DNA of 64,000 nt from Polyangiales bacterium (GCA_965227405.1 OZ245758.1:1641693-1705692), one strand, 5' to 3'; counted from the stretch's first letter, positions 3,591 through 64,000 are shown. Notes: generated from the letters alone by a model not told the origin. A program made the numbers and translations.

Positions 3591-3595
3591 CGCTT

Positions 3596-8160: not shown

Positions 8161-8176
8161 GCTTTACCCTAGCACC

Positions 8177-20299: not shown

Positions 20300-20351
20300 G
20301 CGCAAATCGTATCGAAAACCACGCGCCGCTTCTACTTGGTATCCTCCCCGC

Positions 20352-32301: not shown

Positions 32302-32458
32302 GCGCAGGAGTAAAGCACGCCGCATGCCACAAAGGTAGGAAGCCACTGGTTGGAAAGATCGAGGAAAACGGACCCGTTGGTTGGGGATCCTCACGCGATC
32401 GGTGGCGACCCCAGTTGCCAGAGGAGCCCTTCGAGTCGCCAGCAAGTAGGGTCCGGCG

Positions 32459-35069: not shown

Positions 35070-37274
35070 CTAGTAGATGGGGTCTGGTTCGGGTGGCTCA
35101 CCGAGCGTCACCCAAAAACCAACGCGTTGGTCTGCCAGTTCGTGAATCGTCCATTGACGAACCGCTTCGGACAAACATGCGCGCAACGCGCGAAACTCCA
35201 CAGATCCTCCCATCGTCCGCGCGATCATGACTTCGCCGGCTTGGTCCACACGAAAGCTGATGTGCAGATCCGCGGCCGCTTGTGGGTCGGCGGTCAACAT
35301 CCGTCGAGCACATGCGTCGAGCGATTCGCGGTGCTCTGCCAAATATGGTTCAAGTGCGGGTTCCTCAAAAGCGAACGCGAAACTCAAGGGTTCTTCGGCA
35401 ACAGACTCGCCGATTTCCATCGGCAGCGGGGTCCACTCGCGCTCGGGCAACTCATCGACAACGACGAGCTGGTATCGATAGGTCCGGCCGAGCACGACCA
35501 TCGCGAGATCGGCAAGGTGTTGCACCGTCACGCCTTCGTGTGGCTTGACGAGCACCACGTAGTTCGTGACGTCGTGAACGCGTTGCTCCTCAATGCCCTC
35601 GGGAAACGGAAGGACTTCACCGGTCTCGAAATCTCGCACCTCGCGAACAGGTTCGGTTCCAAGCTCGACCGTGAGAAGGACGCTAAACAGCGCGTTGGGA
35701 TTGCAGGCGCCACGTGGCCACCACACTGAAAACGCACCAAGCGAGTCACGCAAGGCAATGTTCGAGAGTACCGGCAAGGGCTCTGATTGCGGCGGAGCGG
35801 GGGCGTCCATCCGTCGACCGACGAGAGTCACCGAACCGAACTGATGTAAGGCCCGAAGCAACGGACGGGCCTGGGTTCGAGCGTCGGCGATCGCGGTCAG
35901 AGGCCGGCCGCCACCGATCGCACAACCATCGATATACCCGCTCGGAGTGGCGAACCTGGCGGCCGTTCTGCGCGCTCGCCGTCGGAGTTCGGCAACCTCC
36001 TCGTCGCTGATGTCCTGAGACGGCCCGTATCGATTGGACGGCCTCTTTGTCGGCGGTGGCGTGCCCCTCGATCGCATTCCGTGTCCTGGCGATTCTTCAA
36101 CCTCGTGAAGCCAAGCCGGTTCATCTTCGACGATCTCTTCAAGGTACCGAGCGTGTTCCTCCTCTCGTCTTTGCTGCTCTGCTTCGACCGCGGCGAGAAC
36201 ATCGTCGACGGGCTCGCCACCGAGGGAAGCTGTGGCGTCCGCGTCAATAACAACCCAGGGTTCTCGACCGTAGTCGTCAGTGCGCACGAGCTGGAGGTCA
36301 TCGGTCCACGGCACTTCCGTCCACCGCTCGATCGTGTCCATGGTGGCGTTCGTCGTGACGCGATGGAGTACCAACGTCATGAGCAGCACCACGACAAGGC
36401 TGACCGTTTGGGCGACTCCCGTGCGACGAAGCGACTCTGCAGCAATCACGAGTGCACCGACGCCCGCCGCAGCCACTGCGATCAGACTCGCTTCGGCAAG
36501 GGCAGTCTCCCCCTGTGCCACGGTCTCGTAGATCTCGATTCTCGCGCGCGTGCTCACCTGAAGCGCCATCAAGAACCCTTCAGTTCGATTCTTCAGCAAC
36601 ACGACGGCGCAGGCTCCGATCATCGCCAGCACACCAGAGGTTGCCGCGCCGAACGCAGCTTCACGTCCCGCAGCAAAACCGAGTGACGCCGCAACAACCA
36701 CGGCGGCGAGTGCCACGAGACTTACGATTGGCGCCTCGGTAACGACCAGCGCCGGTCCAGCACATGCCAGCAGCCCACATGCAACGCCAAGAGCTGCGAG
36801 TGCCCGCTTGCGTTCGCCCTGCGAACGCACTGCGAGAACGACGGCAATCGCTCCAAGCAACCCCATCGATAGGAGCACCCCCAACCAAGCGATGTCGGCC
36901 GCGGACGCGTACCCGCGCAATGCCATTTCACCGTGCGACGACCAGTCTGCCTGCTCCAGTGCTTTCTCGGCGGCGCGCATGCGATACCGCATGCCTCCCA
37001 AGCCCGACAGCCATGGGAGAGTGCCTGTGAACACAATCAATGCTGCTGGGATGCGCCGTCCGTGACGCCTCAACCACAACAATACGCACGCGCCTGCCAA
37101 ACCAACTACACCTGCCGCGGCGATGACAACTCGCCATTCCGTGTAGACAATGCGCGAGCCGATATCGCTCAGAAGCGCGGTGAAGGCAGCAACGAGTGCG
37201 ACGGACAGAATCGGGAGCCCGACCTCAAGCCACGCGCTCTTGCGTTCGTGTTTGCGCTCTTCCCCCCGAGGCAT
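35070..37274 (-). CDS. polytopic membrane protein of unknown function, paralog A
   Basis: N-terminal ~330 aa with ~8 TM helices plus a ~400-aa acidic soluble domain; starts MPRGEERKHERK; collinear homology to the adjacent paralog. Confidence 0.65.
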   Translation of the reverse strand: MPRGEERKHERKSAWLEVGLPILSVALVAAFTALLSDIGSRIVYTEWRVVIAAAGVVGLAGACVLLWLRRHGRRIPAALIVFTGTLPWLSGLGGMRYRMRAAEKALEQADWSSHGEMALRGYASAADIAWLGVLLSMGLLGAIAVVLAVRSQGERKRALAALGVACGLLACAGPALVVTEAPIVSLVALAAVVVAASLGFAAGREAAFGAATSGVLAMIGACAVVLLKNRTEGFLMALQVSTRARIEIYETVAQGETALAEASLIAVAAAGVGALVIAAESLRRTGVAQTVSLVVVLLMTLVLHRVTTNATMDTIERWTEVPWTDDLQLVRTDDYGREPWVVIDADATASLGGEPVDDVLAAVEAEQQRREEEHARYLEEIVEDEPAWLHEVEESPGHGMRSRGTPPPTKRPSNRYGPSQDISDEEVAELRRRARRTAARFATPSGYIDGCAIGGGRPLTAIADARTQARPLLRALHQFGSVTLVGRRMDAPAPPQSEPLPVLSNIALRDSLGAFSVWWPRGACNPNALFSVLLTVELGTEPVREVRDFETGEVLPFPEGIEEQRVHDVTNYVVLVKPHEGVTVQHLADLAMVVLGRTYRYQLVVVDELPEREWTPLPMEIGESVAEEPLSFAFAFEEPALEPYLAEHRESLDACARRMLTADPQAAADLHISFRVDQAGEVMIARTMGGSVEFRALRACLSEAVRQWTIHELADQRVGFWVTLGEPPEPDPIY

Positions 37275-37302
37275 CCTGCGAGTCTACATGCCGACCCCGA
37301 AA

Positions 37303-39462
37303 CTACTCGCGGGGGGATTCCCCGAGTCGGACCCAAAAACTGAACCGCTGTTCGTGGTCGTTGGGACGAAATCGCCACTGCTTAACCGCGTCTGCCAAAC
37401 ACCCACGCAACGCACGGAGTTCCACCGCGCCACCGATTGTACGTGCCGATGACACCTCGCCGCTCGGCGCCACGCGAAAATAGATCGACATGGTACCTGC
37501 CAGTTCGCGGTCGAGTGACAGAGCGCGTCGTGCACATTGATCGAGCAGTTCGCGACTATCGGACATCCGATGGCGGAGTTCCGCACGCTCGCGTGGAGGA
37601 CCAAAGGTCAGCTGTTGTTCAGCCACGGACTCGTCGATGTCCGTAGGTAACGGAACAACGACTCGCTCGGGCAACTCGTCGACGAGCACGAGGCGATACT
37701 TGCCCGTTAGCGCCTGCAGGGGTGCAGCTAAATCGGCAAGATCCTGAATACTCGCGTCACCAGTCGACTCCACGAACATGATGAAGTAGGCGTTCGGCTG
37801 ATCGTCGCGCCGTTGTTCCAACCCATCTGGAAACGCCAACGTTTCGCCCGTCTCAAAGTCACGTACTTCACGAACCCGATCCGCGCCGAGTTGCACCGTG
37901 AGCAAGACATCATGCAGCGCGTTGGGTTCGCATTGGGTCCGTGGCCACCACACTGAGAACTGAGTCAACGAGTCGCGAAGGGCGATGTTCGACAAGATCG
38001 TGAGCGGTTCCGTATCTGGAAGAGGACGTGCCTCTCGGTAGCGACCCACCAACTCCACAGTCGCAAGTTCACCAAAGAGTTCGGGCAACGCGCGAGCCTT
38101 CGTTCGTGCGTCAACCACTGCAGCAACTCGTTCTCCCCCACCGATCGGACAGCCTTCGATTTCTTCCATAGGCCGCATTGAGGCTTGCTGAAGGCGGCGC
38201 GTCATCTCGCTCTCCTCATCGGGAGGCCGACCGATGGCGTGGCGGTTCGTGTTGTCTTCTGGTTCGAGCCACTCTGGCTCTTCCTCGTGAATGTACCCGG
38301 GTGGGTAGCCGTACTCCTCAAACTCGCGAGCACGGTCTTCGTGTCTTCGGCGTTGCTCCGCCCTCACCCTCGCAACGACATCATCGACCGGCTCGCCCTG
38401 AAACCAGACTTCTTCATTCTCCAGCACCACCAGCCATGGCTCCGATGCGTACTCGTCAGGAGTACGAGCGAATTCGAGAGTCTCCGGCCACGCATGGTTG
38501 GTCCAACCTTCGATCATCGACATGCTTGCGGCTGTGGAAACCCGATGCAGCGCCAACGTGATCAGGACGACGACAACAACGCTCACCGCACGCAACACCG
38601 GCGTTCGTCGAAGCGACTCTCCGCACAACACCAGCGCACCTACGCCCACCGCCGCGATCGCGATCCAGCTCGCCTGCAGTAGCGCTGTTTCGATCTCTGC
38701 AATCGTCTCGAAAATCTGCATCCTCGACTCCGCATCCACGCTGGCGACAACGCCAAATCCAGGGATACGACCTTCGAGTTGAGCAACGCCGCACGCCGCT
38801 GTTGTCGCAAGAAACCCCGCGGCCGCAGAACCAAACGCACTGGGTCGGCCTGCGCTGAGCCCGAATGACACCGCCGCAACGACAGATGCAAGCGCGACCA
38901 ACGCTGCGATCGGTGCTGTTGCAACTGCCAGTGCAGGCCCGACACATGCGATGACGCCACAGCCCACACCGAGCGCTACGAGAGTCTGGCCGCGATCGCC
39001 ATGTGCGCGAACCGCGATCACAACCGCGATGGATACCAACAGACCGCAAGAGAACAGCAGACCAAACCACGCGCTGCTACTCGCTTCGGCGTAACCGCAC
39101 AGCGCCATGATGCCGTGCATCGACCAGTCTGCGTGTTGCAACGCGCGGTCGACCATGCGCATGCCGAAGCGCATCCCGCCAAGCCCCGTAATCCAAGGAA
39201 GCGTGGCAACAAAGATCGTCAGCGCGACCGGAACGTTTCGTCCCTGGCGAGCCAGCCAAAGCAGAACACAAACGCCAGCGAGCCCACTGATCCCCGCAGC
39301 AGAGACGGCGTAAAACCACCAGCCCATGCTAGGAATGCGGTCGCGAAGTTCGTTTCCGAGCAGCAGCGCGAGTGCGAACACAACCGAGACCGACACCATC
39401 GGCAGAGCGATCTCGATCAGCGCGGCCTTTCGTTCGCGCGATTGCTTTTCCCCCCGCGGCAT
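37303..39462 (-). CDS. polytopic membrane protein of unknown function, paralog B
   Basis: same architecture as paralog A (MPRGEKQSRERK..; ..LSNIALRDSL..FSVWWPR..NPNAL..VREVRDFETGE..); 28-bp spacer to paralog A. Confidence 0.65.
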   Translation of the reverse strand: MPRGEKQSRERKAALIEIALPMVSVSVVFALALLLGNELRDRIPSMGWWFYAVSAAGISGLAGVCVLLWLARQGRNVPVALTIFVATLPWITGLGGMRFGMRMVDRALQHADWSMHGIMALCGYAEASSSAWFGLLFSCGLLVSIAVVIAVRAHGDRGQTLVALGVGCGVIACVGPALAVATAPIAALVALASVVAAVSFGLSAGRPSAFGSAAAGFLATTAACGVAQLEGRIPGFGVVASVDAESRMQIFETIAEIETALLQASWIAIAAVGVGALVLCGESLRRTPVLRAVSVVVVVLITLALHRVSTAASMSMIEGWTNHAWPETLEFARTPDEYASEPWLVVLENEEVWFQGEPVDDVVARVRAEQRRRHEDRAREFEEYGYPPGYIHEEEPEWLEPEDNTNRHAIGRPPDEESEMTRRLQQASMRPMEEIEGCPIGGGERVAAVVDARTKARALPELFGELATVELVGRYREARPLPDTEPLTILSNIALRDSLTQFSVWWPRTQCEPNALHDVLLTVQLGADRVREVRDFETGETLAFPDGLEQRRDDQPNAYFIMFVESTGDASIQDLADLAAPLQALTGKYRLVLVDELPERVVVPLPTDIDESVAEQQLTFGPPRERAELRHRMSDSRELLDQCARRALSLDRELAGTMSIYFRVAPSGEVSSARTIGGAVELRALRGCLADAVKQWRFRPNDHEQRFSFWVRLGESPRE

Positions 39463-53289: not shown

Positions 53290-54162
53290 CTATGCGACGA
53301 ACGCCGCGTGGTTTACTTCGAACTGCTCTGGGGAGACGTACCCAAGCGTCGAGTGACGTCGTTCCCGGTTGTAAAAGACTTCGATGTACTCGAAGAGCGC
53401 ACTCCGGACATCCTGCTCGTCTCGCCAAGTGCGACGCGAGATGAGTTCTTGTTTGAGCGTGCTGAAGAACGACTCCGCGACCGCGTTGTCCCAGCAGTTG
53501 CCTTTGCGACTCATGCTCAGACGTACTCCCGCTTGAGTGGCCGCAAGTTCGAATGCATAGCTTGTGTACTGCCTGCCTCGATCGGAGTGGTGAACGAGCT
53601 CTTCCTCTGGCGCGCGAGAAATCAGCGCCGCATTGAAAGCGCTGAGCACCAGCTCGGTTGTGAGGTCGCTACGCAATGACCAGCCAACGACTTTGCGTGA
53701 GAACAGATCCAGGATCACTGCGAGGTACGACCAGCCTTTTGCGGTCTGAATGTACGTGATGTCGCTGACCCATTTTTCGTTCGGTCGTGACGCCGCAAAG
53801 TCGCGGTCGAGTATGTTTGCTACAACAGGTCGCGTCTCATCGCGTTCTGTGGTGTTTCGAAAACTCTTTCGCTTCCGCGCTTGGATCCCCAGTGTTTTCA
53901 TGGCGTTTTCAACGGTGCGTTTGGAGACTCGTATCCCATGCGTCTCGCGCAACTCCGCCAACACGCGTGGACTGCCGTACGTTTGGTAGCTCGCGAGGAA
54001 GATGAGTTGAACAAGTTCTTCGACGTGTCGTCGACGCGTTTCAGTCCGACTCGGTCCTCGATCTCTCCACGCGTAGTACCCGGCACGCGTGACCTGAAGG
54101 ACGCGACAGAGACGAGCGATTGAGTGGTTTGCCTTCTCTGCGTGAATGAAAGCAAATCTCAT
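53290..54162 (-). CDS. IS3-family transposase OrfB (integrase core, DDE)
   Basis: HSDRGRQYTS motif and rve-type catalytic core. Confidence 0.85.
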   Translation of the reverse strand: MRFAFIHAEKANHSIARLCRVLQVTRAGYYAWRDRGPSRTETRRRHVEELVQLIFLASYQTYGSPRVLAELRETHGIRVSKRTVENAMKTLGIQARKRKSFRNTTERDETRPVVANILDRDFAASRPNEKWVSDITYIQTAKGWSYLAVILDLFSRKVVGWSLRSDLTTELVLSAFNAALISRAPEEELVHHSDRGRQYTSYAFELAATQAGVRLSMSRKGNCWDNAVAESFFSTLKQELISRRTWRDEQDVRSALFEYIEVFYNRERRHSTLGYVSPEQFEVNHAAFVA

Positions 54163-54494
54163 TCGCTTTCGCGCGCAAAGAAGGCCGCGGCTTTTTTTAG
54201 GATGACCTTGTCCTCTTCCGCGGAGTCGAGTTTCCGTTGCAGACGCTTCACCTCACGCCGCAACCGTTGCAACTCCTCCTCGGGCGTCTCCTCTTTCCTC
54301 GTCGCCGTCCGCTTCTTTTTCGGTTTCTTCCGAGCCATCTCATCACGGTACCAGCTGTAGAGCGTGCCTCGATTCACGCCGAGGCGTTCCGCCAGAACAG
54401 CAAACGTGTCGTCGCTTCGCAGGACGAGTTTCACCGCTTCAGCGCGAAACTCAGCCGAGTAGCGACTATTCCTTCTCGATCTTCTTGAGCCCAT
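54159..54494 (-). CDS. IS3-family transposase OrfA (HTH)
   Basis: Myb/HTH N-terminus RRNSRYSAEFRAEAVKLV and leucine zipper; slippery AAAAAAG at minus strand 54199..54192. Confidence 0.85.
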   Translation of the reverse strand: MGSRRSRRNSRYSAEFRAEAVKLVLRSDDTFAVLAERLGVNRGTLYSWYRDEMARKKPKKKRTATRKEETPEEELQRLRREVKRLQRKLDSAEEDKVILKKAAAFFARESE

Positions 54495-54645
54495 GACACC
54501 TCCAAGGCGGTGTCAACGAAAGCGAGGGAGGCCCAGGGGTCTATTCCATTTAATTTTTTCGAAGATTTGAAGAGCGAAGACTCAAGATTTTTCTCGGTTT
54601 CTACCGCCAGCGCGTCGGCGAATACACTCTCCGCAGGAGGTCTCC

Positions 54646-54894
54646 ATGAAGGGTTTTGCTCTCGGATTGTCACTGTCGATCGCGTTTGTTTTAGGGTGCG
54701 TTTCAAGTCCGCTCGTCACACGCGATGCCCGCGCTCAAGAGGACGGCGGGGAAGTCGTGCCAGCACACGTCCCACGTTGGCAGCACTTCTACTACCTCGA
54801 CCAACCGCCGCGGTACGACCTGGACCGTTTGAACGACCTGGGCGGACGCGGCTGGCAGATGGTCGGACCGCGTGATGAGTACGATCGAGTCTGA
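54646..54894 (+). CDS. small lipoprotein, hypothetical
   Basis: MKGFALGLSLSIAFVLGCVSSP lipobox; 82 aa. Confidence 0.45.
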   Translation: MKGFALGLSLSIAFVLGCVSSPLVTRDARAQEDGGEVVPAHVPRWQHFYYLDQPPRYDLDRLNDLGGRGWQMVGPRDEYDRV

Positions 54895-55000
54895 AGCGTC
54901 AACTGTGATCAGATCTGCGAAGCCACAGCACCCTAGAAAAGGAAATCGGTCTCCTCTTTGCACTCTTGGAATCTTCTGATCTTCCAAAAAATAAAATAGG

Positions 55001-55031
55001 TATCCCCGTATCCCCGTATGCCCGTATCCCG
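55001..55031. repeat. octanucleotide tandem repeat (TATCCCCG)x4
   Basis: tatccccgtatccccgtatgcccgtatcccg in a convergent intergenic region next to an A/T-rich run. Confidence 0.85.
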
Positions 55032-55055
55032 ACCGCAACCAACCAAACCCACCGA

Positions 55056-56153
55056 TCACTCAGGCGTCGGCAGTTCCTCCAACGAGCTGATGTACGCCCA
55101 CAATGCTTCCAGTTCCACGTCGGTCATTCGCTCTGCGTACGGCTTCATCAGCGTCATCGGCTCACGCACATCGGAGCCATCCGGTCGCTTCATCTCGCGC
55201 ATCGAACGCACAAAGTCTTCGTAGCTCCACTCGTTCAACGCAGTCAGGTTTGCCGCTGGGAGCCAATCCGGATCGCCACCCAAGATTGGACCTCCCTGAA
55301 GCTGCTCTCGATGACAACCCACGCACGGTCCCGCGAGGTGCTCGCCGAATTCCAACGTCGGCGCGGCTTCTGGAGGCGTCGACGGATACGTTTGCTCGTG
55401 GTCGATCTCATCCGCAGCTAACGGGATCTCCCCAAACGCGAGCAACACGGTTCCGAGCGGACCCATCTGCACCGCTGGCGTGTCATCTGAATCAACGGGA
55501 TCCAACGAACGCACGTACGCGATGATGTCGGAGAGTTCGCGGTCGCTCATGCGCTGATGATCTTGAGCAGGCATGACGGAGGGACGTCCGTCAGACATGA
55601 CTCCGTGTCGAACGATGCGATCCCAATCCGCGACGGAGTAGCTTTCATCGAGCCCGCCGTTGCCTGAAGTCAGGTTGGGTCCGAGGAACGTACCGAGCGC
55701 AGGGTCGTCCACCATGACGCCACCACCGAAGTTCGCGCCGTGACATTCGGTGCAGCCATATCGTGCTTCGACGAGGTGCTGTCCGCGTTCGATGGCGCGT
55801 TCCAAAGCGAGTGCGTCAAGATCGACCCCTTCGAGAGGATCGACTTCAACAACATCGGCGGCATCGGCATCGACATCCGCATCGGGATCGGCATCCGCAT
55901 CGGCATCCGCATCGTCGTCGGTTTCGGATTCAGAGGAAGCAAGTTGCGCAGACCGCTCCTCGCGCAGCTGATCAAGCTCCGCCTCGCTCAACGGAAACGG
56001 AACCGGAACATCCACCACGCTCACGTCGAACGAGCGGTTGACCAACGAATCCGCTTTGACCGAAGCCCATGCGTAAAGGACGCCAACTCCGACGAGCAGG
56101 ACTCCCAGAAAGACAGCAAGCCCCTTAAAGAACTTCTTCACCCCACCTCCCAA
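55056..56153 (-). CDS. membrane-anchored diheme c-type cytochrome
   Basis: two CxxCH motifs (CTECH, CVGCH); N-terminal TM; (DA)n low-complexity linker. Confidence 0.75.
   Translation of the reverse strand: MGGGVKKFFKGLAVFLGVLLVGVGVLYAWASVKADSLVNRSFDVSVVDVPVPFPLSEAELDQLREERSAQLASSESETDDDADADADADPDADVDADAADVVEVDPLEGVDLDALALERAIERGQHLVEARYGCTECHGANFGGGVMVDDPALGTFLGPNLTSGNGGLDESYSVADWDRIVRHGVMSDGRPSVMPAQDHQRMSDRELSDIIAYVRSLDPVDSDDTPAVQMGPLGTVLLAFGEIPLAADEIDHEQTYPSTPPEAAPTLEFGEHLAGPCVGCHREQLQGGPILGGDPDWLPAANLTALNEWSYEDFVRSMREMKRPDGSDVREPMTLMKPYAERMTDVELEALWAYISSLEELPTPE
55852..55917. repeat. hexanucleotide tandem repeat (GCATCG/GCATCC)n coding (DA)n
   Basis: catcggcggcatcggcatcgacatccgcatcgggatcggcatccgcatcggcatccgcatcg. 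Confidence 0.85.
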
Positions 56154-56278
56154 GCCGGATTGTATACGGTCATCACAACGAACTGGAGAACGACATCGAC
56201 TCGGTCGTCACGTCATTTGTCACAGCAGGATACGGTTCGATTCGAATCGAGATCTCACTCGACTCGAGACGCATCCAC

Positions 56279-56563
56279 GTGCGGCGTTGGGGTCACAAAC
56301 TCGACGAAGAAGCTGAGTACACGTTGCCGAAAGCAAAAGTCGCGAGGCTCCGGCGACTCGCCTCACGAGTCCAACAAGACGAACAAGAATCCGTCGTCGG
56401 GTCGTTTCACGAAACCGGTCGTGAAACCTTGGACATCTCCATCAACGGTCAGTGGATACGACTCGAGCATCCCACCGACCGCCTGACAACGCCCGCAGCA
56501 AGTGCAGTGACCACCTACTGTCACCAACTCGCCGACGAGTACTGCCCGCGAAAAGCAACATGA
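56279..56563 (+). CDS. hypothetical small protein (uncertain)
   Basis: 94-aa ORF with protein-like composition in a 540-bp divergent intergenic region. Confidence 0.25.
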   Translation: MRRWGHKLDEEAEYTLPKAKVARLRRLASRVQQDEQESVVGSFHETGRETLDISINGQWIRLEHPTDRLTTPAASAVTTYCHQLADEYCPRKAT

Positions 56564-56690
56564 GGTTTGGGTCACTCGGCGGCTGAGGCTCCGTCGCCTC
56601 AGGCTGGCCGCACTCAACCCGAATTCGCCTTGATTTCCGGGACTTGGATCGCGCAATCGGGGCGGCACGATGCTTGTAATAGGGAGCTGC

Positions 56691-57383
56691 ATGAACTTGC
56701 TCTCTCGTTGGTTGATGCTCGCTTCAATCCTCGCATTGGTCGGTTGCGGTGACGACGATGGTCCCGCCGATCCAGTCGACGGAGGCAACGGTGACGCTCC
56801 CGTTTTCATGCCTCCCGACACGGGGCTCATGCTTCGCGATTCGGGCAACGTCGACAGCTCGGTCTCCGAGTGCATGCGACCTCGGCTCGACCCACCGCCG
56901 GCTGAAAGTCTTCCACTGTGTAGCGCCGAAACGCGTGACTGCGTACAGCGTTGTCCCGAAGACGAAGAGGACTGCGCCGATGAGTGCTGGGCTGCGGATG
57001 AAACTCCGGCGGACCCGGACATCGGAGGATGCGGCGAGTGCGTGATCTTCGACCTGCTCGCGTGCTTCGACGCAAACGGATGTCAGCAACAAGTCGCCGA
57101 GATCTTCTGTTGCGGTGAACGCGAGTGCCCACCGGGCAGCGCCGAAGACTGCTTTGATGTGATGTGCCAACCGGAGCTGCAAACGTTGTTCTCGTGTGGC
57201 GTGTCGATGGCACCCACCTGTTTGGATGAACTCAACGGCACGGGCGCTTGCTACGACGACACACCGCTGACTGATGCCGGTCCGATGGACGACGCAGGTC
57301 CCATGGATGACGCGGGTCCCGGCGACGCGGGCGACATGGATGCAGGCGTTGCGGACGCCGGTACCGACGCAGGAGAAGTTTGA
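56691..57383 (+). CDS. Cys-rich secreted lipoprotein, hypothetical
   Basis: lipobox MNLLSRWLMLASILALVGCGDD; about 20 Cys; C-terminal DAGPMDDAGPMDDAGP repeat; ATGA overlap with the next gene. Confidence 0.6.
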   Translation: MNLLSRWLMLASILALVGCGDDDGPADPVDGGNGDAPVFMPPDTGLMLRDSGNVDSSVSECMRPRLDPPPAESLPLCSAETRDCVQRCPEDEEDCADECWAADETPADPDIGGCGECVIFDLLACFDANGCQQQVAEIFCCGERECPPGSAEDCFDVMCQPELQTLFSCGVSMAPTCLDELNGTGACYDDTPLTDAGPMDDAGPMDDAGPGDAGDMDAGVADAGTDAGEV

Positions 57384-59068
57384 TGCGAACGTTCTGTTTA
57401 GTCGCGCTACTGGCGCTTGGTTGCAGCGATGAGGGACCCGAACCGGTACCCGCCGAAGTGGTCGAACGACTCTCGCCCACCGAACACTTGGTCCGCGCCA
57501 GCATGGCGATTCGTGGTGTGCGACCGGGCATTGCGGAGATCGAAGCGGTGGAAGCGGACCCTGGCGCACTGCCATCCATCGTCGACTACTACCTGACCAC
57601 CGACGAGTTCGGCGCCACGGTTCGTGACGTCTGGGCCGAAGGTCTCTTGCTGGGGATCGCCGCCGACTCCTTCCCGGCTGGTTTTGCCGCTGTGGGTGAG
57701 CTCGCTGACCGAACCACCCATGAGATCAACACCTCAATCATCGAGGCGCCCCTTCGTTTGATCGAACACGTCGTCGTCAACGACCGGCCCTTCCACGAAA
57801 TCGTCACAGCCGACTACACTCTTGCTGACGAGATCGTCGCCACCGTCTGGGGCTTGCCCTATGACAACGAAGCCGGTGGATGGCAGGTCACCACTTACGA
57901 AGACGGTCGCGACGTCGCGGGCATCCTGTCTGATGGCTTCATCTTCACGCGTCACTCCAGCACGTTCTCCAACAAGAACCGCGGACGCGCTTCACAGATT
58001 TCGCGCGGACTTCTTTGCTACGACTTCCTCGATCGTCACGTCGAGATCGACACCGGCATCGACTTGGCGGATGCCGAAGCCGTGGCCAACGCGATTCGTC
58101 GCAACGACGCCTGTGTCTCGTGCCACCAGACGCTCGATCCCCTGGCTGCATACTTCGCGAATCACTTTCCGATCCGGGTTCCCAGCGACATCACCGAGTA
58201 CCCCGTTCAACAGTACGCTCCCGAACTCGCGTTCCTGAACACCTCAAGTCCACACACCGCGTACTTTGGTCAAAGCGGCAACGGCCTGCACGACTTGGGT
58301 GTCCGGATGGCCACCGACACGCGGTTTGAGATGTGCGCAACGCGTCGTTTCTACTCGCACCTCACGCAAGTCGAGGTCGACAACATTCCACTCGAAACAG
58401 TCAGCCGATTCCGCGATGTACTCGTCAACGAAGGGCAGAACGTCAAAGCGATGGTTCGCGCCATCGTCCTCAGTGATGAGTTTGCATCCCGTCGCGTCAA
58501 CGCCGATGCCACCGACGACGAAGCCGCGCGTCTGGTGGGTATGCAGTTCGCGTCGCCGGAACAACTCGCGCGCATGATGGAGGACTTCGCCGGCTACCGC
58601 TGGGAGACCGACTTCAACTTCGACTTTGGCTTCGGAACGATTGGCCGCATCGACCTAATGCGTGACCCTTTCTTCGGCTACAGCGTGCTGGGCGGTGGCA
58701 CCGACTCGATCAGCGTCACGCGACCCACGCGCACCGTCAGTGCCAGCACCAACTTGGTCTTAACTGGATTGGCCGGGCGCACCGCCATTGCGCTGGTTCG
58801 CTACGACCTCAACGAGCCTGACCCCGCCTACCGTCGTTTGCTCACGAAGGTCGACGACACCACACAAGACGAAGCAACCATCCGCGATCAACTCATCGAC
58901 GTGCACCTGCGCTTCTACGGACAGCGCGTCACCGCGGACTCCCCCGAGATCGACGCCTTGTGGACACTCTGGTCCGGCGCACTCGCCGACCCCGAAGCCG
59001 ACCCGTGGAGAGCGTGGCAGTTCACGATCTTCGCCATGCTCCAAGACATTCGCATCGCCTACTACTGA
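57380..59068 (+). CDS. DUF1800-like lipoprotein with a CxxCH motif
   Basis: lipobox MMRTFCLVALLALGCSDE; CVSCH; sits upstream of a DUF1501-like gene, which is the usual DUF1800-DUF1501 pairing. Confidence 0.55.
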   Translation: MMRTFCLVALLALGCSDEGPEPVPAEVVERLSPTEHLVRASMAIRGVRPGIAEIEAVEADPGALPSIVDYYLTTDEFGATVRDVWAEGLLLGIAADSFPAGFAAVGELADRTTHEINTSIIEAPLRLIEHVVVNDRPFHEIVTADYTLADEIVATVWGLPYDNEAGGWQVTTYEDGRDVAGILSDGFIFTRHSSTFSNKNRGRASQISRGLLCYDFLDRHVEIDTGIDLADAEAVANAIRRNDACVSCHQTLDPLAAYFANHFPIRVPSDITEYPVQQYAPELAFLNTSSPHTAYFGQSGNGLHDLGVRMATDTRFEMCATRRFYSHLTQVEVDNIPLETVSRFRDVLVNEGQNVKAMVRAIVLSDEFASRRVNADATDDEAARLVGMQFASPEQLARMMEDFAGYRWETDFNFDFGFGTIGRIDLMRDPFFGYSVLGGGTDSISVTRPTRTVSASTNLVLTGLAGRTAIALVRYDLNEPDPAYRRLLTKVDDTTQDEATIRDQLIDVHLRFYGQRVTADSPEIDALWTLWSGALADPEADPWRAWQFTIFAMLQDIRIAYY

Positions 59069-59079
59069 GGAACTGACTG

Positions 59080-60330
59080 ATGAAAAGAAGAACACTTCTC
59101 TCTGGTGGTGCTGCGATGGCAGCGCTTGGTGGCCTGGGTGGCCTGCTCCGTGCTCGCGCATCGGGTTCGGGTGCGTGCAAGAACCTTGTCGTCGTCTTGA
59201 ACTTCGGTGGTTGGGACACGACCTACACGATCGATCCCAAACCCGGACGGGAGCGCATCGACGCCCCCGAAGGCGACGTGCGCATGTTTGGTGGTCTGCC
59301 GATCTACGACAGCGAAACACGTCCACAGGTCACTGAGTTCTTTCAGACCTGGGGAAGCGAGTGCGCGGTCGTCAACGGCGTTCAGGTTCGCTCGTTTGTG
59401 CACAGCGACTGCGTGAAACGCATCCTCACGGGCGGTCCGTCTGAGGTCACGCCCGACCTTGCGGCGATCAGTGCGTACGAACTGGGTCGCGAGCGTCCGG
59501 TGCCCTACTTGGCCTTTGGTAGTCAGGCGCGCAGTGGTCCCTTTGCATCGCTCACGGGACGGACGGGAACGCTCAATCAGCTGACGACGTTGGCGAATCC
59601 TGAGCGGGCGTATCCGCGGCCGGGCGCGTTTGGTCCCGACCAAGGCTTCCAGCCGACCGCAGCCGAATCGGAGTTGTTACGTGCGTACCTCGAGGGTCAG
59701 GCAACCGCACTTGAAACGCGGTTCGGAACGCGCGGCTACAACGGCGATCGCATCGACGACTATCGCGGCTCACTCACGCGTGCGGACTTGTTGCGACAGT
59801 TTTCGCTCGACAACGACTTGGGTGAACTGGACTACACGCCCGATTTGGCGGTTCAGGTACCGATGGCGATCAACGCGATGCGCGATGGTCTCGCTCAAAC
59901 GATCATGATGGAGACCGGCGGTTGGGACACGCACACCTACAACGCCATGCAGGGCGAGCTGCACAACAACCTGTTCGGCGCACTCAACCAGTTGGTGCAA
60001 GGCCTCAACGAAGAGAACCTCTTGAGCGACACAATGGTTGTCGTGCTCTCGGAGATGGGTCGTACGCCGCTGCTCAACGCCGACATGGGCAAAGACCATT
60101 GGCCTGTCACCAGCGCGATGCTCTTGGGCGGCGACGTACGTGGCGGTCGTGCTCTGGGTGGAACCAACGACGAACTCGGAGCGCTCTCGATGGATCTGCA
60201 AACCGGCGACGTTCGCGAAGACGGCAAGCAGCTACAGACCTCAAACTTGGTTGCTGGAATCTTGGAATCGGTCGGCGTGGATCCGGAGCCCTACTTCCCG
60301 GGTGTGGAGGCGTTCCGTGCGTTTCTGTAG
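59080..60330 (+). CDS. DUF1501-family Tat-secreted protein (sulfatase/phosphatase-like fold)
   Basis: Tat signal MKRRTLLSGGAAMAALGG; C-terminal GKDHWP..GGDVRGGRALGGTNDELGA resembles DUF1501 proteins. Confidence 0.7.
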   Translation: MKRRTLLSGGAAMAALGGLGGLLRARASGSGACKNLVVVLNFGGWDTTYTIDPKPGRERIDAPEGDVRMFGGLPIYDSETRPQVTEFFQTWGSECAVVNGVQVRSFVHSDCVKRILTGGPSEVTPDLAAISAYELGRERPVPYLAFGSQARSGPFASLTGRTGTLNQLTTLANPERAYPRPGAFGPDQGFQPTAAESELLRAYLEGQATALETRFGTRGYNGDRIDDYRGSLTRADLLRQFSLDNDLGELDYTPDLAVQVPMAINAMRDGLAQTIMMETGGWDTHTYNAMQGELHNNLFGALNQLVQGLNEENLLSDTMVVVLSEMGRTPLLNADMGKDHWPVTSAMLLGGDVRGGRALGGTNDELGALSMDLQTGDVREDGKQLQTSNLVAGILESVGVDPEPYFPGVEAFRAFL

Positions 60331-60700
60331 TGCACTGCTCTTGATTGCGGTGATGGGTTGTGCCGATGACACACCACCGCGAATCGACAACCAACTTCCC
60401 GAATGTCCAGAAGATAGCGTTCTTACGTACGAGAACTTCGGCCGGCCTTTTCTCTTGGATTGGTGCACTGGCTGTCACTCGAGCGAACTCGCCAACAACA
60501 TTCGCGGCAACGCGCCCGAGGACTTGAACTTCGACGACCCGAACTTGTTCCGGCCCTATTTGTTGGAGATGTACGACGTGGCCGCCGACGAAAACATCGA
60601 GATGCCACCTGTTGGAGGGCCTGGTTCTGCGGAGCGTCACCTCTTCGGGGAGTGGATCGCCTGTGGAGCGCCGTCGGACTACGACGTCATCTCCGAATGA
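60317..60700 (+). CDS. small c-type-cytochrome-like lipoprotein
   Basis: GTG start; lipobox LLLIAVMGCADD; CTGCH heme-binding motif; 127 aa. Confidence 0.5.
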   Translation: MRFCSALLLIAVMGCADDTPPRIDNQLPECPEDSVLTYENFGRPFLLDWCTGCHSSELANNIRGNAPEDLNFDDPNLFRPYLLEMYDVAADENIEMPPVGGPGSAERHLFGEWIACGAPSDYDVISE

Positions 60701-60722
60701 CGATTGCGCTACGCTTGGCTCG

Positions 60723-62222
60723 ATGTCGACGGAGCGATATCGAGACTTGGAACCGATCGCCCAAGGGGGGATGGGCGAGGTGTTCCGCGCAACGATGATT
60801 TCGGATGCAGGTGTCGAGAAACGCGTCGCGTTGAAGCTCCTGCACGATGCCGACGGCAGTGATGGGTTTCTCGAAGAAGCGAAGATCGCGATGGCGATGT
60901 CGCACGGCAACATCGTGCAGACCTTCGACGCCGGGCATCGTGAGGGGCGTCCCTTTTTGGCCATGGAGCTCGTCGAGGGGACGGATCTCAGTGCACTGAT
61001 CGCCCGCGGTCCCATTCCGGTCGCACACGCACTGACGATTGCGGCCGAAGCGTTGCGTGGTTTGGACTACGCGCATCGGCTTCGTTCTCCAACCGGTGCG
61101 CGTTTGGACGTCGTGCACCGTGACATCTCGCCGGCGAATTTGTTGGTGAGCCACGATGGTGAAGTGAAGGTTGCCGACTTTGGGATTGCGCGCGGTGCGG
61201 CGCATCGACAACAAGAGCGCGGGGTTCGTGGAAAGCTCGCGTACATGGCGCCGGAGCAGCTTTCGGGCAGTGCGATCGACGCGCGCGCTGATCTCTACGC
61301 CATGGGCGTGGTGTTGTTTGAGATGTTGACCGGTGAACGCCCCTTCCAAGCCGCCGACGCCGATGGACTCCGTGCAGCGATTCTTCAGGGCGGCGTCGAC
61401 GCGTCGAGCGTTCCTGCACGTGGGGTGATCGAACGCGCCATGTCTCTCGACGCTGGAGATCGGTTCGAAAACGCAGCTCAGATGCGCGAAGCGATCGAAG
61501 ACGCAGCCCGTGAAGCAGGGGAGCGTGTTTCGACACGAGCACTCCGTGACTGGATGGGCGCCACGCCTGCGCCTGCGAGTGATGGCTTCGATGCACGGCT
61601 CGGTGCGCTCTTGGGCGGTTCGCGTACGGGCACGGTGGAAGTGGAAGCCGCGGTGACCCCCCAAGCTGCAGAGCCGGACGCGTCGGACTCAGAGACTGCA
61701 ACGAGCACTCGTTCGTACACGGGATTGGTCGTGTTGGCGTTGGTGGTGTCTGCGGCGATGCCCTTTATCGGGTTCGCTTTTGATGACGACGAACCACGTC
61801 GCACATACACACCTCCACGGCCTGCGAGCATGAGGGCGATGGCGGAGAGCATGACGCCCGTGCAGGAGCCGGTTGCAGAAATGGCTGTTGCTCCGACCGT
61901 CGTGACGATGGAGCCAACGAAGAGGACGCGCCCACGCATGCGCATGTCGATGCTTGAGTCCATGCGCGTGGAACCCGAACCTGAGATGACGTCGGAAGTT
62001 GTTGGGGTGCAGCCTGGTGAGCTTTGGATTGCGAGTGAACCTTGGGCGTACGTGTCCATTGATGGGCAACGGATTGGTCGCACGACGCTTCGTGGACACA
62101 CCGTCGAACCAGGGCGGCACGTGATCGTTTTGTCCAACCCGGATGCGCAGCTGCAGCGTCGGATTCAAGTCGAGATCGAACCCGGTGAACGCAAACGACT
62201 CTCGGTAAACCTAAACGAATGA
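60723..62222 (+). CDS. Ser/Thr protein kinase with TM helix and C-terminal PEGA domain
   Basis: Hanks motifs GGMGEVF, VALKL, HRDISPANLLV, DFGIA, APE; TM LVVLALVVSAAMPFIGFAF; PEGA-like ..GELWIASEPWAYVSIDGQRIGRTT..; ORF-track start is 60612. Confidence 0.85.
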   Translation: MSTERYRDLEPIAQGGMGEVFRATMISDAGVEKRVALKLLHDADGSDGFLEEAKIAMAMSHGNIVQTFDAGHREGRPFLAMELVEGTDLSALIARGPIPVAHALTIAAEALRGLDYAHRLRSPTGARLDVVHRDISPANLLVSHDGEVKVADFGIARGAAHRQQERGVRGKLAYMAPEQLSGSAIDARADLYAMGVVLFEMLTGERPFQAADADGLRAAILQGGVDASSVPARGVIERAMSLDAGDRFENAAQMREAIEDAAREAGERVSTRALRDWMGATPAPASDGFDARLGALLGGSRTGTVEVEAAVTPQAAEPDASDSETATSTRSYTGLVVLALVVSAAMPFIGFAFDDDEPRRTYTPPRPASMRAMAESMTPVQEPVAEMAVAPTVVTMEPTKRTRPRMRMSMLESMRVEPEPEMTSEVVGVQPGELWIASEPWAYVSIDGQRIGRTTLRGHTVEPGRHVIVLSNPDAQLQRRIQVEIEPGERKRLSVNLNE

Positions 62223-63553
62223 GCGACTGGGCAACTCGGACGCTCATTCAAGATGGGCACGTTGTTTCGCAAAGCGTGCGGTGCATTCGCTTGCGTGTTC
62301 GACACGACGGAAACGAAGACGTTGTGGAACTGCGTACGCCGCGAATCCGAGTCGGTTCGCGCCCCGGACTCGAGCTAACGCTGAACGACGACGCCGTGAG
62401 TCGTACGCACTTTGAGCTGCTCGCGACCGAACGAGGCTTCCGACTGCGAGACCTGGGAAGCCGCAACGGGACAACCGTGGATGGCTATCGAACGCGCGAC
62501 ATCGAACTCAAGCGCGGTTCGGTGATTCGTGTTGGGCGCACCGAGTTGGTGTTTGAGCCCACCGAAAAAGAAGCGCCGGTGGCGCTGTACGAGTCGGATC
62601 GCTTTGGTGAGTCGGTGGGTGGCTCTGCGCGCATGCGTGAAATCTTCGCGTTGGTCGACAAGGCTGCACCCACAAGCGTGACCGTGTTGCTGCAAGGCGA
62701 GAGCGGAACCGGTAAAGAAGCGATGGCGCGTTCAATTCACCAGGCGAGTCCACGACGTGATCGTCCGTTTGTCGTGGTCGATTGCAGTGCCCTTCCGGCG
62801 AGCCTGTTGGAAAGCGAGCTTTTTGGTCATGAAAAAGGGGCATTTACTGGAGCGTCGACGCGACGACTCGGTCTGATGGAGGAAGCGCAAGGGGGAACGC
62901 TCTTCTTCGACGAAATCGGTGAGCTCCCGGTGGACATGCAGCCCAAGCTCTTGCGCGCGTTGGAATCGCGAAGCGTCCGACGCGTGGGCGGGCGCGAAAC
63001 GATCAACCTGGATGTTCGCGTGATTGCGGCGACGAACCGGGACCTTGCGGTGGAAGTGAACCGAGGTTCGTTTCGTGAAGATCTCTACTACCGGATCGCC
63101 GTGTTGGAAGTGACCTTGCCACCCTTGCGTGAGCGACCTGAGGATGTGCAGCTCTTGGTCGCGCACTTTGTGCGTGACGCATTGCGGGATGATCCGGGAC
63201 AAGCCGAGCGACTGCTTGCGAGTATTACGCGTGAGAACTGGGAGAAGCTTCGTTCGAGACCATGGCCTGGAAACGTGCGTGAGCTACGCAACGTGATCGA
63301 AGTATCGTTGGCATTGAAGGGCGACGATCCGCACTTGCAGCTGCACGGACAAAGCGTGTCTGCGCCCAGTAGTTCCGTGGATCTTGATCGTCCGTACAGC
63401 GCGCAGAAGCAGGAGTGGATCCAGCGTTTCGAGAAAGCGTACGTGTTAGGACAGCTCGAGCGACACGACGGCAACATTAGCCAAGCCGCGCGCGCGAGCG
63501 GTCTGGAGCGAATGCACTTCAAGCGAATCCTGAAGAAGCACACCGACGGCTAA
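62219..63553 (+). CDS. sigma-54-dependent transcriptional activator with N-terminal FHA domain
   Basis: FHA ..[24 protein letters not shown]..; Walker A GESGTGKE; GAFTGA motif; C-terminal Fis [24 protein letters not shown]; ATGA overlap with the kinase. Confidence 0.9.
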
Positions 63554-63654
63554 TCTTCTGCGGGTGAATTCTGGGGACGCGTTTACTGGTTACCCGGACC
63601 TGCCCTGAAACAGCTCGATCTGCCGGCATTTTTGCAAAACCAACGCAAAACGAC

Positions 63655-63954
63655 TCAACGCCGCGCGAGTGCCTCGGCGGCAATCAACGCTGTGGGCGCG
63701 CCCTTCTTCCGAACCAACACGAGTTGGTAACGACCCGTTTCGTAGACAGGTTCACCCTGTGGACTGGTCCCAACTTGCTCGAGGTGTGTGGGCGTCGCGT
63801 CCCAAATCACTTCCGCAGGCAACGACTCCTTAAAGCTCCTTCGGTCGAACTCCACTGTGCTGACGAAGCCGGTCACGATCTCCAACCGGAAGCCGCGCTT
63901 GCTCTCTGCAAAGCCGTCGTCATCCTCGATCTCGACCGCGGAGCACAACTTCAA
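63655..63954 (-). CDS. hypothetical protein
   Basis: 99-aa ORF near the window edge; no motif recognised. Confidence 0.3.
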   Translation of the reverse strand: MKLCSAVEIEDDDGFAESKRGFRLEIVTGFVSTVEFDRRSFKESLPAEVIWDATPTHLEQVGTSPQGEPVYETGRYQLVLVRKKGAPTALIAAEALARR

Positions 63955-64000
63955 CGCGCGCTTGACCTCGGGAGACTCGTAGTAACTACCCAGCAGAGCA

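Follow-up and report, generated by a model that had tools for sequence, protein, structure and literature searches.

A probable sigma-54-dependent envelope operon in Polyangia, followed in one lineage by its own kinase and FHA-type activator

Introduction

When genes for secreted proteins stand directly before genes for a membrane kinase and a transcriptional activator, do they form one functional unit, and which part acts on which? We address this question for six plus-strand genes, here g1 to g6, in a 64,000-nucleotide stretch of DNA from a Polyangiales bacterium (GCA_965227405.1 OZ245758.1:1641693-1705692; hereafter the window). A sequence-only reading had described them, together with a divergently transcribed diheme cytochrome gene, as an envelope redox or metal-related module that signals directly to a sigma-54 regulator. 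The 81 related loci with which we compared the window all belong to Myxococcota, and nearly all to the class Polyangia. Most likely, the kinase and the FHA-type activator drive sigma-54 transcription of an extracytoplasmic module of heme proteins and an enzyme of alkaline-phosphatase fold. We give a probability of roughly 0.6 to the reading that this is a Polyangia-typical, sigma-54-dependent envelope operon for four exported proteins, whose dedicated regulators, in this lineage, follow in the same transcription unit.

Results

The six co-oriented open reading frames extend over 56691-63553 with no gap larger than 22 bp, which bears out the tight packing described earlier. The ATGA overlap of g5 and g6 is present at 62219-62222, whereas the one placed at 57380 is not: the sequence at this g1/g2 junction is TTGATG, with the g1 stop codon TGA at 57381-57383 and the g2 ATG at 57383, so that the genes overlap by 1 nt (4 nt if g2 starts at TTG 57380). 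Spacers of 11 to 23 bp had also been proposed, and we find 11 bp between g2 and g3 and 22 bp before the kinase ATG at 60723, but no spacer between g3 and g4, because the signal peptide of g4 requires a GTG start at 60317 (or 60302) and the two genes consequently overlap by 14 (or 29) nt. This start is backed by the alignment of homologues and by an independent gene call in related locus L084. No terminator-like sites were found in the cluster, and sigma-70-like promoters within it showed no excess over chance. Co-transcription of g1 to g6 is probable.

Three of the exported proteins form a core that is essentially invariant across the 81 loci, namely the CxxCH lipoprotein g2, the Tat-DUF1501 protein g3 and the small cytochrome-like lipoprotein g4; 79 of 81 loci have g3 adjoining g2, and 72 of 81 encode g4. 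The lipoprotein g2 (57383..59068, plus strand, 561 aa) carries the CVSCH motif reported for it, but not the DUF1800 domain: PF08811 did not match the window protein at E values up to 0.01 and was weakly matched by just 3 of 20 relatives (best E 1.8e-4). The window protein instead approaches PSCyt3/DUF1588 (PF07627; 25.0 bits, below the cut-off of 27) and PSD2/DUF1585 (PF07624; 22.2 bits, below the cut-off of 25.8), and at E values up to 0.01 its relatives match PSCyt3 in 20 of 20 cases and PSD2 in 14 of 20. Judged by these profile matches, g2 is probably a divergent member of the PSCyt3/PSD2 superfamily; weak matches of its relatives to PSCyt2, PSD1, PSD4 and DUF1800 link these families. It is a large helical protein with one CxxCH, whose C244, C247 and H248 do not vary among 20 sequences, and we found no solved structural relative.

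The small lipoprotein g4 (60317..60700, plus strand, 127 aa) has the CTGCH motif noted earlier, and all 23 homologues share its CxxCH and a Met-Pro pair. Seventeen of these 23 matched the Pfam model Cytochrome_CBB3 (best E 5e-5), while the window protein itself had no Pfam match even at E values up to 1; a g4 profile searched against the PDB reached CcoP and small cytochromes c at E values of only 0.005-1. We consider g4 a candidate monoheme class-I c-type cytochrome. The window proteins g2 and g4 both lie under Pfam thresholds, and both combine a conserved CxxCH with a lipoprotein signal peptide; each may carry covalently bound heme.

The third core protein, g3 (59080..60330, plus strand, 416 aa), was correctly called DUF1501-like, since PF07394 scored 98.5 bits (cut-off 27), with the alignment restricted to profile positions 244-370 of 390, and was found in all 120 g3 homologues listed. 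Its predicted Tat signal also stands: the N-terminus, MKRRTLLSGGAAMAALGG, contains KRRTLL, 24 homologues share R3 and R4 without exception, and many homologues match PF10518. The fold is that of the alkaline-phosphatase superfamily, nearest to NPP, PhoK, PafA and sulfatases, at an identity of only 8-14% to members of the superfamily (NPP/ENPP, PhoK/PafA, S1 sulfatases and LtaS/EptA transferases); a sequence search of the PDB found no relative. The CxPxR motif of sulfatases is absent from g3. It retains conserved metal-ligand-like residues and, by its length, fold and these residues, looks like an enzyme rather than a sensor. We know of no characterised member of the superfamily that works with heme lipoprotein partners.

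The first gene, g1 (56691..57383, plus strand), encodes a Cys-rich lipoprotein, as the sequence-only reading had it; the protein is acidic, 230 aa long, and has a lipobox and 19 Cys. It matched nothing in Pfam or NCBIfam, and among 1.84 billion proteins only 76 cluster representatives matched it; homologues of its domain fall into two length classes. It lies 5' of g2 in 7 related loci, and in 8 Polyangiaceae loci it is positioned after g4 and fused to it. We conclude that g1 is an accessory partner of the module.

The divergent diheme cytochrome gene is outside the module. It exists as described (55056-56153, minus strand; two CxxCH motifs and two Cytochrom_C stretches), but none of the 81 related loci, including the closest syntenic relative, has a homologue of it, and it adjoins an IS3-family element. 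A search for a sigma-54 promoter before it, which had been suggested, yielded no credible site.

The regulators g5 and g6 largely match their earlier description. In g5 (60723..62222, plus strand, 499 aa), a cytoplasmic kinase domain (PF00069, 135 bits, E 4e-39; motifs VALK, VHRD, ADFG and MAPE) is followed by one hydrophobic, membrane-spanning segment at about residues 331-355 and an extracytoplasmic, C-terminal PEGA-like region. The transmembrane Ser/Thr kinase is therefore confirmed, whereas its PEGA domain (PF08308) scored 19.7 bits, below the Pfam cut-off of 20.8, and 20.0 bits in the orthologue of locus L001. Conservation of this C-terminal domain is limited to L002, L004 and L005, and the domain differs between clades. 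These genomes are rich in kinases, and the window encodes a second one at 17937-19472. The protein g6 (62219..63553, plus strand, 444 aa) is an enhancer-binding protein with an FHA domain (PF00498, 49.2 bits against a cut-off of 20.7, E 7e-13; motifs GSR, SRTH and NGT), an AAA+ sigma-54 activator domain with Walker A GESGTGKE and the GAFTGA motif (PF00158, 232 bits, E 4e-69) and an HTH_8 domain (E 8e-6); the FHA domain, the sigma-54 activator type and GAFTGA had already been read from the sequence. In L002, the FHA domain is on the kinase itself, adjoining an activator without one. Coupling of g5 to g6 through phospho-Thr and the FHA domain is plausible.

A promoter-like element, CGGCACGATGCTTGTA (56663..56678, plus strand), lies 28 bp 5' of the g1 ATG at 56691. 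Compared with TGGCAC-N5-TTGCW it has two mismatches, with a good -24 and a defective -12 (TTGTA; consensus TTGCA). Because its -12 reads GT instead of GC, the strict GG-N10-GC test that had been suggested for this position fails at the locus itself. The element is identical in L084, where the local DNA is 94.9% identical, and the closest relative, L004, carries TGGCGCACCCCTTGAA at the equivalent position and likewise misses the conserved -12 C (TTGAA). Transcription is predicted to start at about 56688, within the apparent ribosome-binding site GGGAG and some 3 nt 5' of the ATG, which implies that the mRNA is almost leaderless, that translation begins at ATG 56715, or that CGGCACGATGCTTGTA is not the promoter. 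Defining a canonical promoter as a score of at least 9/12 with GG-N10-GC, 10-110 nt 5' of the first gene, we found that 37 of 80 loci have one ahead of the operon, where about 2 were expected by chance (controls: opposite strand, 4; shuffled sequences, mean 2.4 and maximum 8; background windows, 2.3%), and these sites occupy the same position as CGGCACGATGCTTGTA in the window.

The palindrome TGAGGC-N6-GCCTCA (56584..56601), 79 bp 5' of CGGCACGATGCTTGTA, is a candidate enhancer (UAS) for the FHA-type activator and has no other exact copy in the 64-kb window. When the 547-bp intergenic region is compared with that of L004, the sole conserved stretch is 23 bp (95.7%) that hold this palindrome. 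In six loci of the window's clade it stands 59-93 bp 5' of the promoter, often in tandem. Allowing up to 2 mismatches, L002 (two copies), L004 (two), L005, L018 (two) and L027 have it at this distance from the promoter-like site, against a background of 40 such matches in 1.22 Mb. Eight Polyangiaceae loci have a different palindrome, GTCGC-N6-GCGAC, 67-109 bp 5' of the promoter, and hold 11 of its 25 occurrences in 1.23 Mb. Such 5-N6-5 palindromes, 60-110 bp upstream of the sigma-54 promoter, are clade-specific candidate enhancers, to which the activator would bind.

Activator, kinase and promoter also occur together. Of 80 loci, 22 encode a full-length FHA-type enhancer-binding protein no more than 3 kb from the trio. 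A canonical promoter is found in 19 of these 22 and in 18 of the 58 others (Fisher p = 1e-5), and a kinase within 6 kb in 19 of 22 and 16 of 58 (p = 2.4e-6), the three activator loci without a nearby kinase being those with cut flanks. No activator lies within 3 kb in 58 of 80 loci and no canonical site in 43 of 80, including cultured Nannocystis and Paraliomyxa genomes. Where present, the activator takes three positions (downstream in the operon, upstream on the same strand, or divergent upstream), which points to selection rather than inheritance of one arrangement. Synteny, proposed earlier as a check, recurs in distant relatives for the trio and for its linkage to the kinase and activator, though not for the divergent cytochrome, and the view that the exported proteins and the regulators are a functional unit is supported.

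Discussion

The regulatory circuit appears to be legible from the DNA. We propose that the PEGA-like domain of the membrane kinase g5 would sense an extracytoplasmic cue and that the kinase would autophosphorylate on Thr. Docking of the g6 FHA domain on this phospho-Thr would license g6 for assembly on the palindrome (56584-56601), and g6 would then use ATP to remodel sigma-54 RNA polymerase at 56663-56678. Transcription of g1 to g4 would follow, and read-through into g5 and g6 would provide positive autoregulation. The products may form a lipid-anchored extracytoplasmic complex, in which two hemes would serve or gate g3 acting as a metal-dependent phospho- or sulfo-ester hydrolase or transferase on an envelope or external substrate. 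The direction that can be read runs from the activator to the operon, through the palindrome and the sigma-54 promoter 5' of g1, and not demonstrably from the module to the sigma-54 regulator, as had been suggested; feedback from the exported module to the kinase is possible. Of the label "redox or metal-related", the redox part rests solely on the invariant CxxCH motifs, and the metal part found no specific support.

The opposite direction, in which g1 to g4 are an extracytoplasmic redox- or metal-sensing apparatus that feeds the kinase while the regulatory pair controls sigma-54 promoters elsewhere in the genome, strikes us as unlikely. Hemes and a Cys-rich protein could plausibly sense redox state or metals, the six genes are closely spaced on one strand, and the kinase has a small, little-conserved ectodomain that could therefore need partner proteins. 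However, the sigma-54 promoter and the clade-specific palindromes lie immediately 5' of the g1/g2 operon, most loci have the trio without any nearby kinase or activator, and g3 looks enzymatic; as feedback, sensing and regulated output can be compatible. The regulators might also owe their place beside the trio to chance or common ancestry, in a genome rich in kinases, and regulate unrelated genes. Myxococcota do have many kinases and activators, and the 58 loci without an adjacent activator, the clade differences in the C-terminal regions of the kinase and the defective -12 of the window fit this reading, but the association among activator, kinase and promoter (p of about 1e-5 to 2e-6), the three activator positions around the trio and the very existence of a palindrome-plus-promoter architecture make it very unlikely.

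A further alternative concerns what the module does, rather than how it is regulated. If the CxxCH motifs bind no heme, or heme with a purely structural role, g1, g2 and g4 would be scaffolds or substrate-binding subunits of a phospho- or sulfo-esterase, employed for example in nutrient scavenging from prey or polymers. Folds like that of g3 (NPP, PhoK, PafA, sulfatases) need no redox partner, g2 has a single CxxCH and lacks a solved structural relative, and the window copies of g2 and g4 fall under the Pfam cytochrome thresholds. Yet neither family shows any variation in CxxCH across 39-65% identity, g4 retains the Met-Pro pair characteristic of an axial ligand, and most g4 relatives match a cytochrome c model, which leaves a non-redox hydrolase quite unlikely.

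The nearest known systems are the gene modules of Planctomycetes and Verrucomicrobia that combine DUF1501 with PSCyt1, PSCyt2 and PSD1 (Kamneva et al. 2012, PMC3542564), whose domains were first defined in Rhodopirellula baltica and for which electron transfer and an enzymatic role were proposed (PMC3542564). As in those modules, a twin-arginine DUF1501 protein here adjoins a large exported protein with the CxxCH signature of cytochrome c. Identity with them was considered and rejected, since this adjacency holds but the PSCyt1/PSCyt2/PSD1 architecture is absent: the partner g2 is a PSCyt3/PSD2-like (DUF1588/DUF1585) lipoprotein, the cytochrome-c-like domain stands on its own in a small lipoprotein, g4, and the narrow-family Cys-rich protein g1 is added. 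The module is moreover confined to Polyangia in the data examined and has one or two copies per genome, against dozens, and its sigma-54 promoter and kinase/FHA-activator pair have no counterpart in the published description (PMC3542564). The literature consulted still assigns no function to DUF1501/PSCyt-type pairs; the sequence-only reading had made this remark of DUF1800/DUF1501 pairs. For sigma-54 itself, a role in controlling the bacterial exterior has been proposed (PMC3162934).

The regulatory pair has its own precedent, with a Hanks-type kinase encoded nearby and an FHA domain that replaces the receiver domain before AAA+ (GAFTGA) and HTH domains, in Myxococcus xanthus. There, FHA-type sigma-54 enhancer-binding proteins reportedly form a recognised class, proposed by Jelsbak, Givskov and Kaiser in 2005, in a study that PMC11980068 cites as ref. 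53, to be driven by Ser/Thr kinases, and they are tied to fruiting-body development. The locus studied here differs from them in that target operon, promoter and candidate enhancer can be read beside the regulator, and in that its output would be an envelope enzyme module.

Gene organisation and encoded proteins

We found six plus-strand genes at 56691-63553, and both the ORF table and the junction sequences uphold their description in the sequence-only reading as co-oriented and tightly packed: g1 (56691-57383, 230 aa), g2 (57383-59068, 561 aa), g3 (59080-60330, 416 aa), g4 (60317-60700, 127 aa), g5 (60723-62222, 499 aa) and g6 (62219-63553, 444 aa). The ATGA overlap proposed at 62219 is correct, and the one proposed at 57380 is a TTGATG junction (stop TGA 57381-83, ATG 57383). 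Spacers of 11 to 23 bp had also been proposed; they exist between g2 and g3 (11 bp) and before g5 (22 bp, start codon ATG 60723), but g4 overlaps g3, since its signal peptide requires the start GTG 60317 (or 60302). In the close relative L084, with 94.9% DNA identity over the region compared and a g2 that is 99% identical, the gene caller placed the boundaries of g1, g2, g3, g4 and g6 identically. The exact g2 sequence of the window has no database record; a 99% identical protein is present on a Logan contig. No terminator-like or sigma-70-like sites above chance were seen in 54500-64000. A 94-aa intergenic ORF (56279-56563) has a called counterpart of equal length in the near-identical L084, but is probably spurious because it is not conserved in more distant related loci.

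The products of g1-g4 are predicted to be three lipoproteins and one Tat substrate. The identification of g3 as a DUF1501-like protein is confirmed by Pfam (98.5 bits), and its predicted Tat export agrees with an arginine pair that is invariant in 24 homologues (KRRTLL near the N-terminus). Residues D46, T48, D283, T284, H285, D339 and H340 of g3 are also invariant, and we infer that they resemble a metal site. For g2 (lipobox LALGC), the proposed lipoprotein with CVSCH stands, as the lipobox cysteine and C244-x-x-C247-H248 are invariant. Its assignment to DUF1800 does not: Pfam instead gives sub-threshold matches to PSCyt3/DUF1588 and PSD2/DUF1585. Among 20 g2 relatives, 20 match PSCyt3, 14 PSD2, 12 PSCyt2 and 3 DUF1800, and g2 is thus a divergent member of the PSCyt3/PSD2 superfamily. 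The small lipoprotein g4 carries a lipobox and CTGCH as described, with CxxCH and Met-Pro both invariant; the Cytochrome_CBB3 model matches 17 of 23 g4 homologues, and g4 is best read as a predicted small class-I c-type cytochrome lipoprotein. The very acidic g1 (lipobox ...LALVGC, 19 Cys) has no family match, NCBIfam gave no specific family for any of g1-g4, and a search of 1.84 billion proteins with the Cys-rich domain of g1 found only 76 representatives. g5 is a transmembrane kinase, as had been claimed, of the Hanks Ser/Thr type with intact catalytic motifs and one transmembrane segment, but its PEGA-like C-terminal domain falls just under the Pfam cut-off, likewise in the L001 orthologue. 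g6 has the expected architecture, FHA - AAA+ (GAFTGA) - HTH_8.

Conservation of the module in Myxococcota

There are hundreds of g2 and g3 homologues, and all of those with a taxon name belong to Myxococcota. For comparison, 80 loci were fetched from species-representative genomes; every locus of this set with a classification is from Myxococcota, and most belong to class Polyangia (Polyangiaceae, Nannocystaceae, Kofleriaceae, Haliangiales and Sandaracinaceae). Cultured members of the set include Nannocystis punicea, N. radixulma and Paraliomyxa miuraensis. Synteny is retained in relatives: g3 follows g2 in 79 of 81 loci, and g4 comes next in 72 of 81, most of the others being cut contigs and three lacking g4 despite enough flank. 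g1 lies upstream in seven loci of the window's clade. In eight Polyangiaceae loci (L009, L012, L017, L021, L022, L023, L029 and L031) it instead comes after g4 and is joined to it as a single ORF, about 1.3-2.6 kb downstream of g2. The g1-domain proteins fall into two length classes that agree with this fusion, which speaks for joint action of g1 and g4. The Polyangia module is single-copy and strongly conserved, with two copies in five MAGs. There, the two g2-g3 copies are on different contigs (L020/L037, L059/L065, L064/L072, L050/L070 and L078/L079); detectable g4 differs between copies in L059/L065, L050/L070 and L078/L079, and the adjacent activator also differs in L059/L065 and L050/L070, while L064 is too short to tell.

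The sequence-only reading had added a divergently transcribed cytochrome to this module. The product of the minus-strand gene at 55056-56153 is a diheme cytochrome c anchored in the membrane, and its linker is an unusual acidic Asp/Ala repeat (DDDADADADADPDADVDADAAD). The gene is found in L084, but has no counterpart in any of the 81 loci that are more distantly related. In L001/L004, the closest relative by synteny (g2 65% identical to the window's), the same SNF2, amidohydrolase, NAD-binding and TetR genes lie upstream as in the window, but both the diheme cytochrome and the adjoining IS3-family element are missing. This element (53290-54494, minus strand; orfA HTH_Tnp_1, 111 aa; orfB rve integrase core, 290 aa) is positioned between the TetR gene and the cytochrome, and the lack of both in L001 suggests a local rearrangement or insertion. 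Given its absence from related loci, we regard the cytochrome as a lineage-specific neighbour outside the system. Two sigma-54 sites considered for it on the minus strand (56497-56512 and 56652-56667) were rejected for having no GG or the wrong spacing.

Association with a kinase, an FHA activator and a sigma-54 promoter

We looked for the motif TGGCACG-N4-TTGCW in the 100 nt before the first gene, and counted a site only if it had GG-N10-GC and matched 9 or more of the 12 positions. A sigma-54-type site was found on the coding strand in 37 of 80 loci, compared with 4 of 80 on the opposite strand, a mean of 2.4 (maximum 8) in shuffled sequence and 2.3% of background windows. The consensus of the sites found is yGGCnC-N5-TTGCT. 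A scan of the whole window for TGGCAC-N5-TTGCW with three mismatches allowed gave fewer sites than chance and is therefore uninformative by itself.

Full-length relatives of g6, an FHA-type sigma-54 enhancer-binding protein (FHA-EBP), occur within 3 kb of the g2-g3-g4 trio in 22 of 80 loci. They lie downstream in the operon (window, L004), upstream on the same strand (L005) or, most commonly, divergently upstream across a 200-430 bp intergenic region. The promoter is present in 19 of 22 loci with an activator and in 18 of 58 without (p = 1e-5). A kinase within 6 kb follows the same pattern (19/22 versus 16/58, p = 2.4e-6), and the three activator loci without one have cut flanks. At L002 (12137-14937, minus strand) the parts are split differently: the kinase itself carries the FHA domain (653 aa, Pkinase + FHA), and the adjacent sigma-54 AAA+ protein (279 aa) is without FHA. 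This split is a second architectural link of kinase and activator. The kinase ectodomain differs by clade. The window's clade has the PEGA-like form; in Polyangiaceae, where transmembrane kinases directly follow g4 (L011 11361-12908, L028 11404-12810, L038 11327-12979 and L054 5116-6696), it is replaced by a long, low-complexity Ala/Pro/Ser-rich tail that ends in a conserved KGQPF(R)xW motif. Clades may therefore respond to different signals, or sensing may proceed via partner proteins. In Kofleriaceae/Haliangiales loci (L061, L062, L066-L068, L071, L074, L076 and L082), two kinase genes in tandem, together with a conserved gene of some 570 aa, lie on the far side of the divergent FHA activator, 3.5-5.4 kb upstream of g2.

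Upstream of the promoters, we observed clade-specific palindromes with a common 5-N6-5 layout. GTCGC-N6-GCGAC is found 67-109 bp upstream of the promoter in eight Polyangiaceae loci, and these upstream sites make up 11 of its 25 occurrences in 1.23 Mb. In six loci of the window's clade, TGAGGC-N6-GCCTCA is found 59-93 bp upstream, often paired in tandem 23-25 bp apart. Its sole exact copy in the 64 kb of the window, at 56584-56601, falls within the only L004-conserved part of the 547-bp intergenic region. A degenerate copy with four mismatches (TGAGGTTTGGGTCACTCG, 56561-56578) lies 23 bp upstream, a spacing that matches the tandem pairs in L002, L004 and L018. A Kofleriaceae palindrome (CGTCG-N7-CGACG) was set aside as evidence, with 120 background occurrences.

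The sequence-only reading had suggested looking for a sigma-54 promoter upstream of 56691. Such sites are present in the 37 related loci, but the window fails the strict GG-N10-GC consensus because its -12 element lacks the C. We consider 56663-56678 (CGGCACGATGCTTGTA), 79 bp downstream of the exact palindrome, the best promoter candidate by position, palindrome spacing and conservation. The equivalent position in L004 reads TGGCGCACCCCTTGAA, and both elements have a good -24 and a -12 GC without its C. The pspA promoter of E. coli carries a comparable TTGTA. A difficulty for this candidate remains, as the implied transcription start (~56688) would fall inside the apparent ribosome-binding site GGGAG, immediately ahead of ATG 56691.

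Proposed mechanism and relation to known systems

The best-supported reading of these statistics and motifs is a relay from kinase to FHA domain to sigma-54. An extracytoplasmic cue would be sensed by g5, the FHA domain of g6 would read the resulting phospho-Thr, and g6 would assemble at the palindrome and then activate the sigma-54 polymerase. This would lead to expression of g1-g4 and probably also of g5 and g6, given that no terminator intervenes and that g5 follows after a 22-bp spacer and g6 through an ATGA overlap; this would provide positive feedback. The biochemical half of the mechanism is drawn from motifs and folds. Here, g1-g4 would form an extracytoplasmic complex with two c-type hemes beside a metal-dependent phospho- or sulfo-esterase-like enzyme. 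A more far-reaching reading is that g1-g4 are an undescribed complex in which lipoprotein c-type hemes gate or drive an alkaline-phosphatase-superfamily subunit, making a redox-coupled phospho-/sulfo-ester enzyme induced by the dedicated relay. We hold this tentatively, at a probability of roughly one in five.

Other explanations have to be weighed against the relay reading. The kinase and activator might be incidental neighbours of the module: the window has a second Ser/Thr kinase (17937-19472, minus strand), and about one kinase per 32 kb is the baseline for chance adjacency, against which stands the joint occurrence of activator, kinase and promoter. The g1-g4 module might itself be a sensor, in line with the sequence-only claim that it signals to the regulator; the readable direction of control is the reverse, from regulator to operon. 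What survives of that earlier picture is an envelope functional unit with a sigma-54 link, without the divergent cytochrome. The module might also be a non-redox hydrolase, against which speak the invariant CxxCH motifs of g2 and g4. With the kinase-FHA-sigma-54 relay as the preferred reading, the module consists of known kinds of parts, newly combined with an explicit control circuit.

In Myxococcus xanthus, an FHA-type sigma-54 activator with a kinase nearby is reportedly a recognised architecture, described by Jelsbak et al. in 2005, a study cited in PMC11980068. To our knowledge, Ser/Thr-kinase/FHA-EBP pairs in myxobacteria are mostly known only as gene architectures. The operon is a concrete, sequence-defined candidate target for such a pair, and it fits the proposed theme of sigma-54 governing envelope functions (PMC3162934). 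Among described systems, the DUF1501 + PSCyt1/PSCyt2/PSD1 module of PVC bacteria (PMC3542564) comes nearest. Both have a Tat-signal DUF1501 protein adjoining a CxxCH protein, with function unassigned. The Polyangia version differs in partner architecture, its split-off cytochrome, its Cys-rich partner, copy number, taxon and regulatory circuit; the kinase, FHA activator, candidate enhancer and sigma-54 promoter are not described for the PVC modules in that source. In the literature found, DUF1501 with PSCyt/PSD/DUF1800 partners is a large gene pair noted mainly in PVC bacteria and assigned no function, as the sequence-only reading had stated for DUF1800/DUF1501 pairs, and our full-text search found no functional study of DUF1501, DUF1588, DUF1553, DUF1549, DUF1800, PSCyt1, DUF1585 or DUF1592. 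We regard the finding as moderately interesting, since an explicit, testable control circuit is attached to a long-standing orphan gene pair. This circuit is an experimental handle through which the inducing signal, and from it the substrate, could be found. Should the redox-coupled enzyme prove true, the DUF1501/PSCyt/DUF1800 superfamily, abundant in Planctomycetes and Verrucomicrobia, would gain its first assigned function.

Elsewhere in the window, six large putative ORFs (431-734 aa; 2295-5344, 8075-10021, 19493-21424 and 35070-39462) have no Pfam match at E <=1e-5. In a 695-aa ORF at 30415-32502 (minus strand), two proprotein-convertase P-domains occur alongside a weak match to the papain family (Peptidase_C1).
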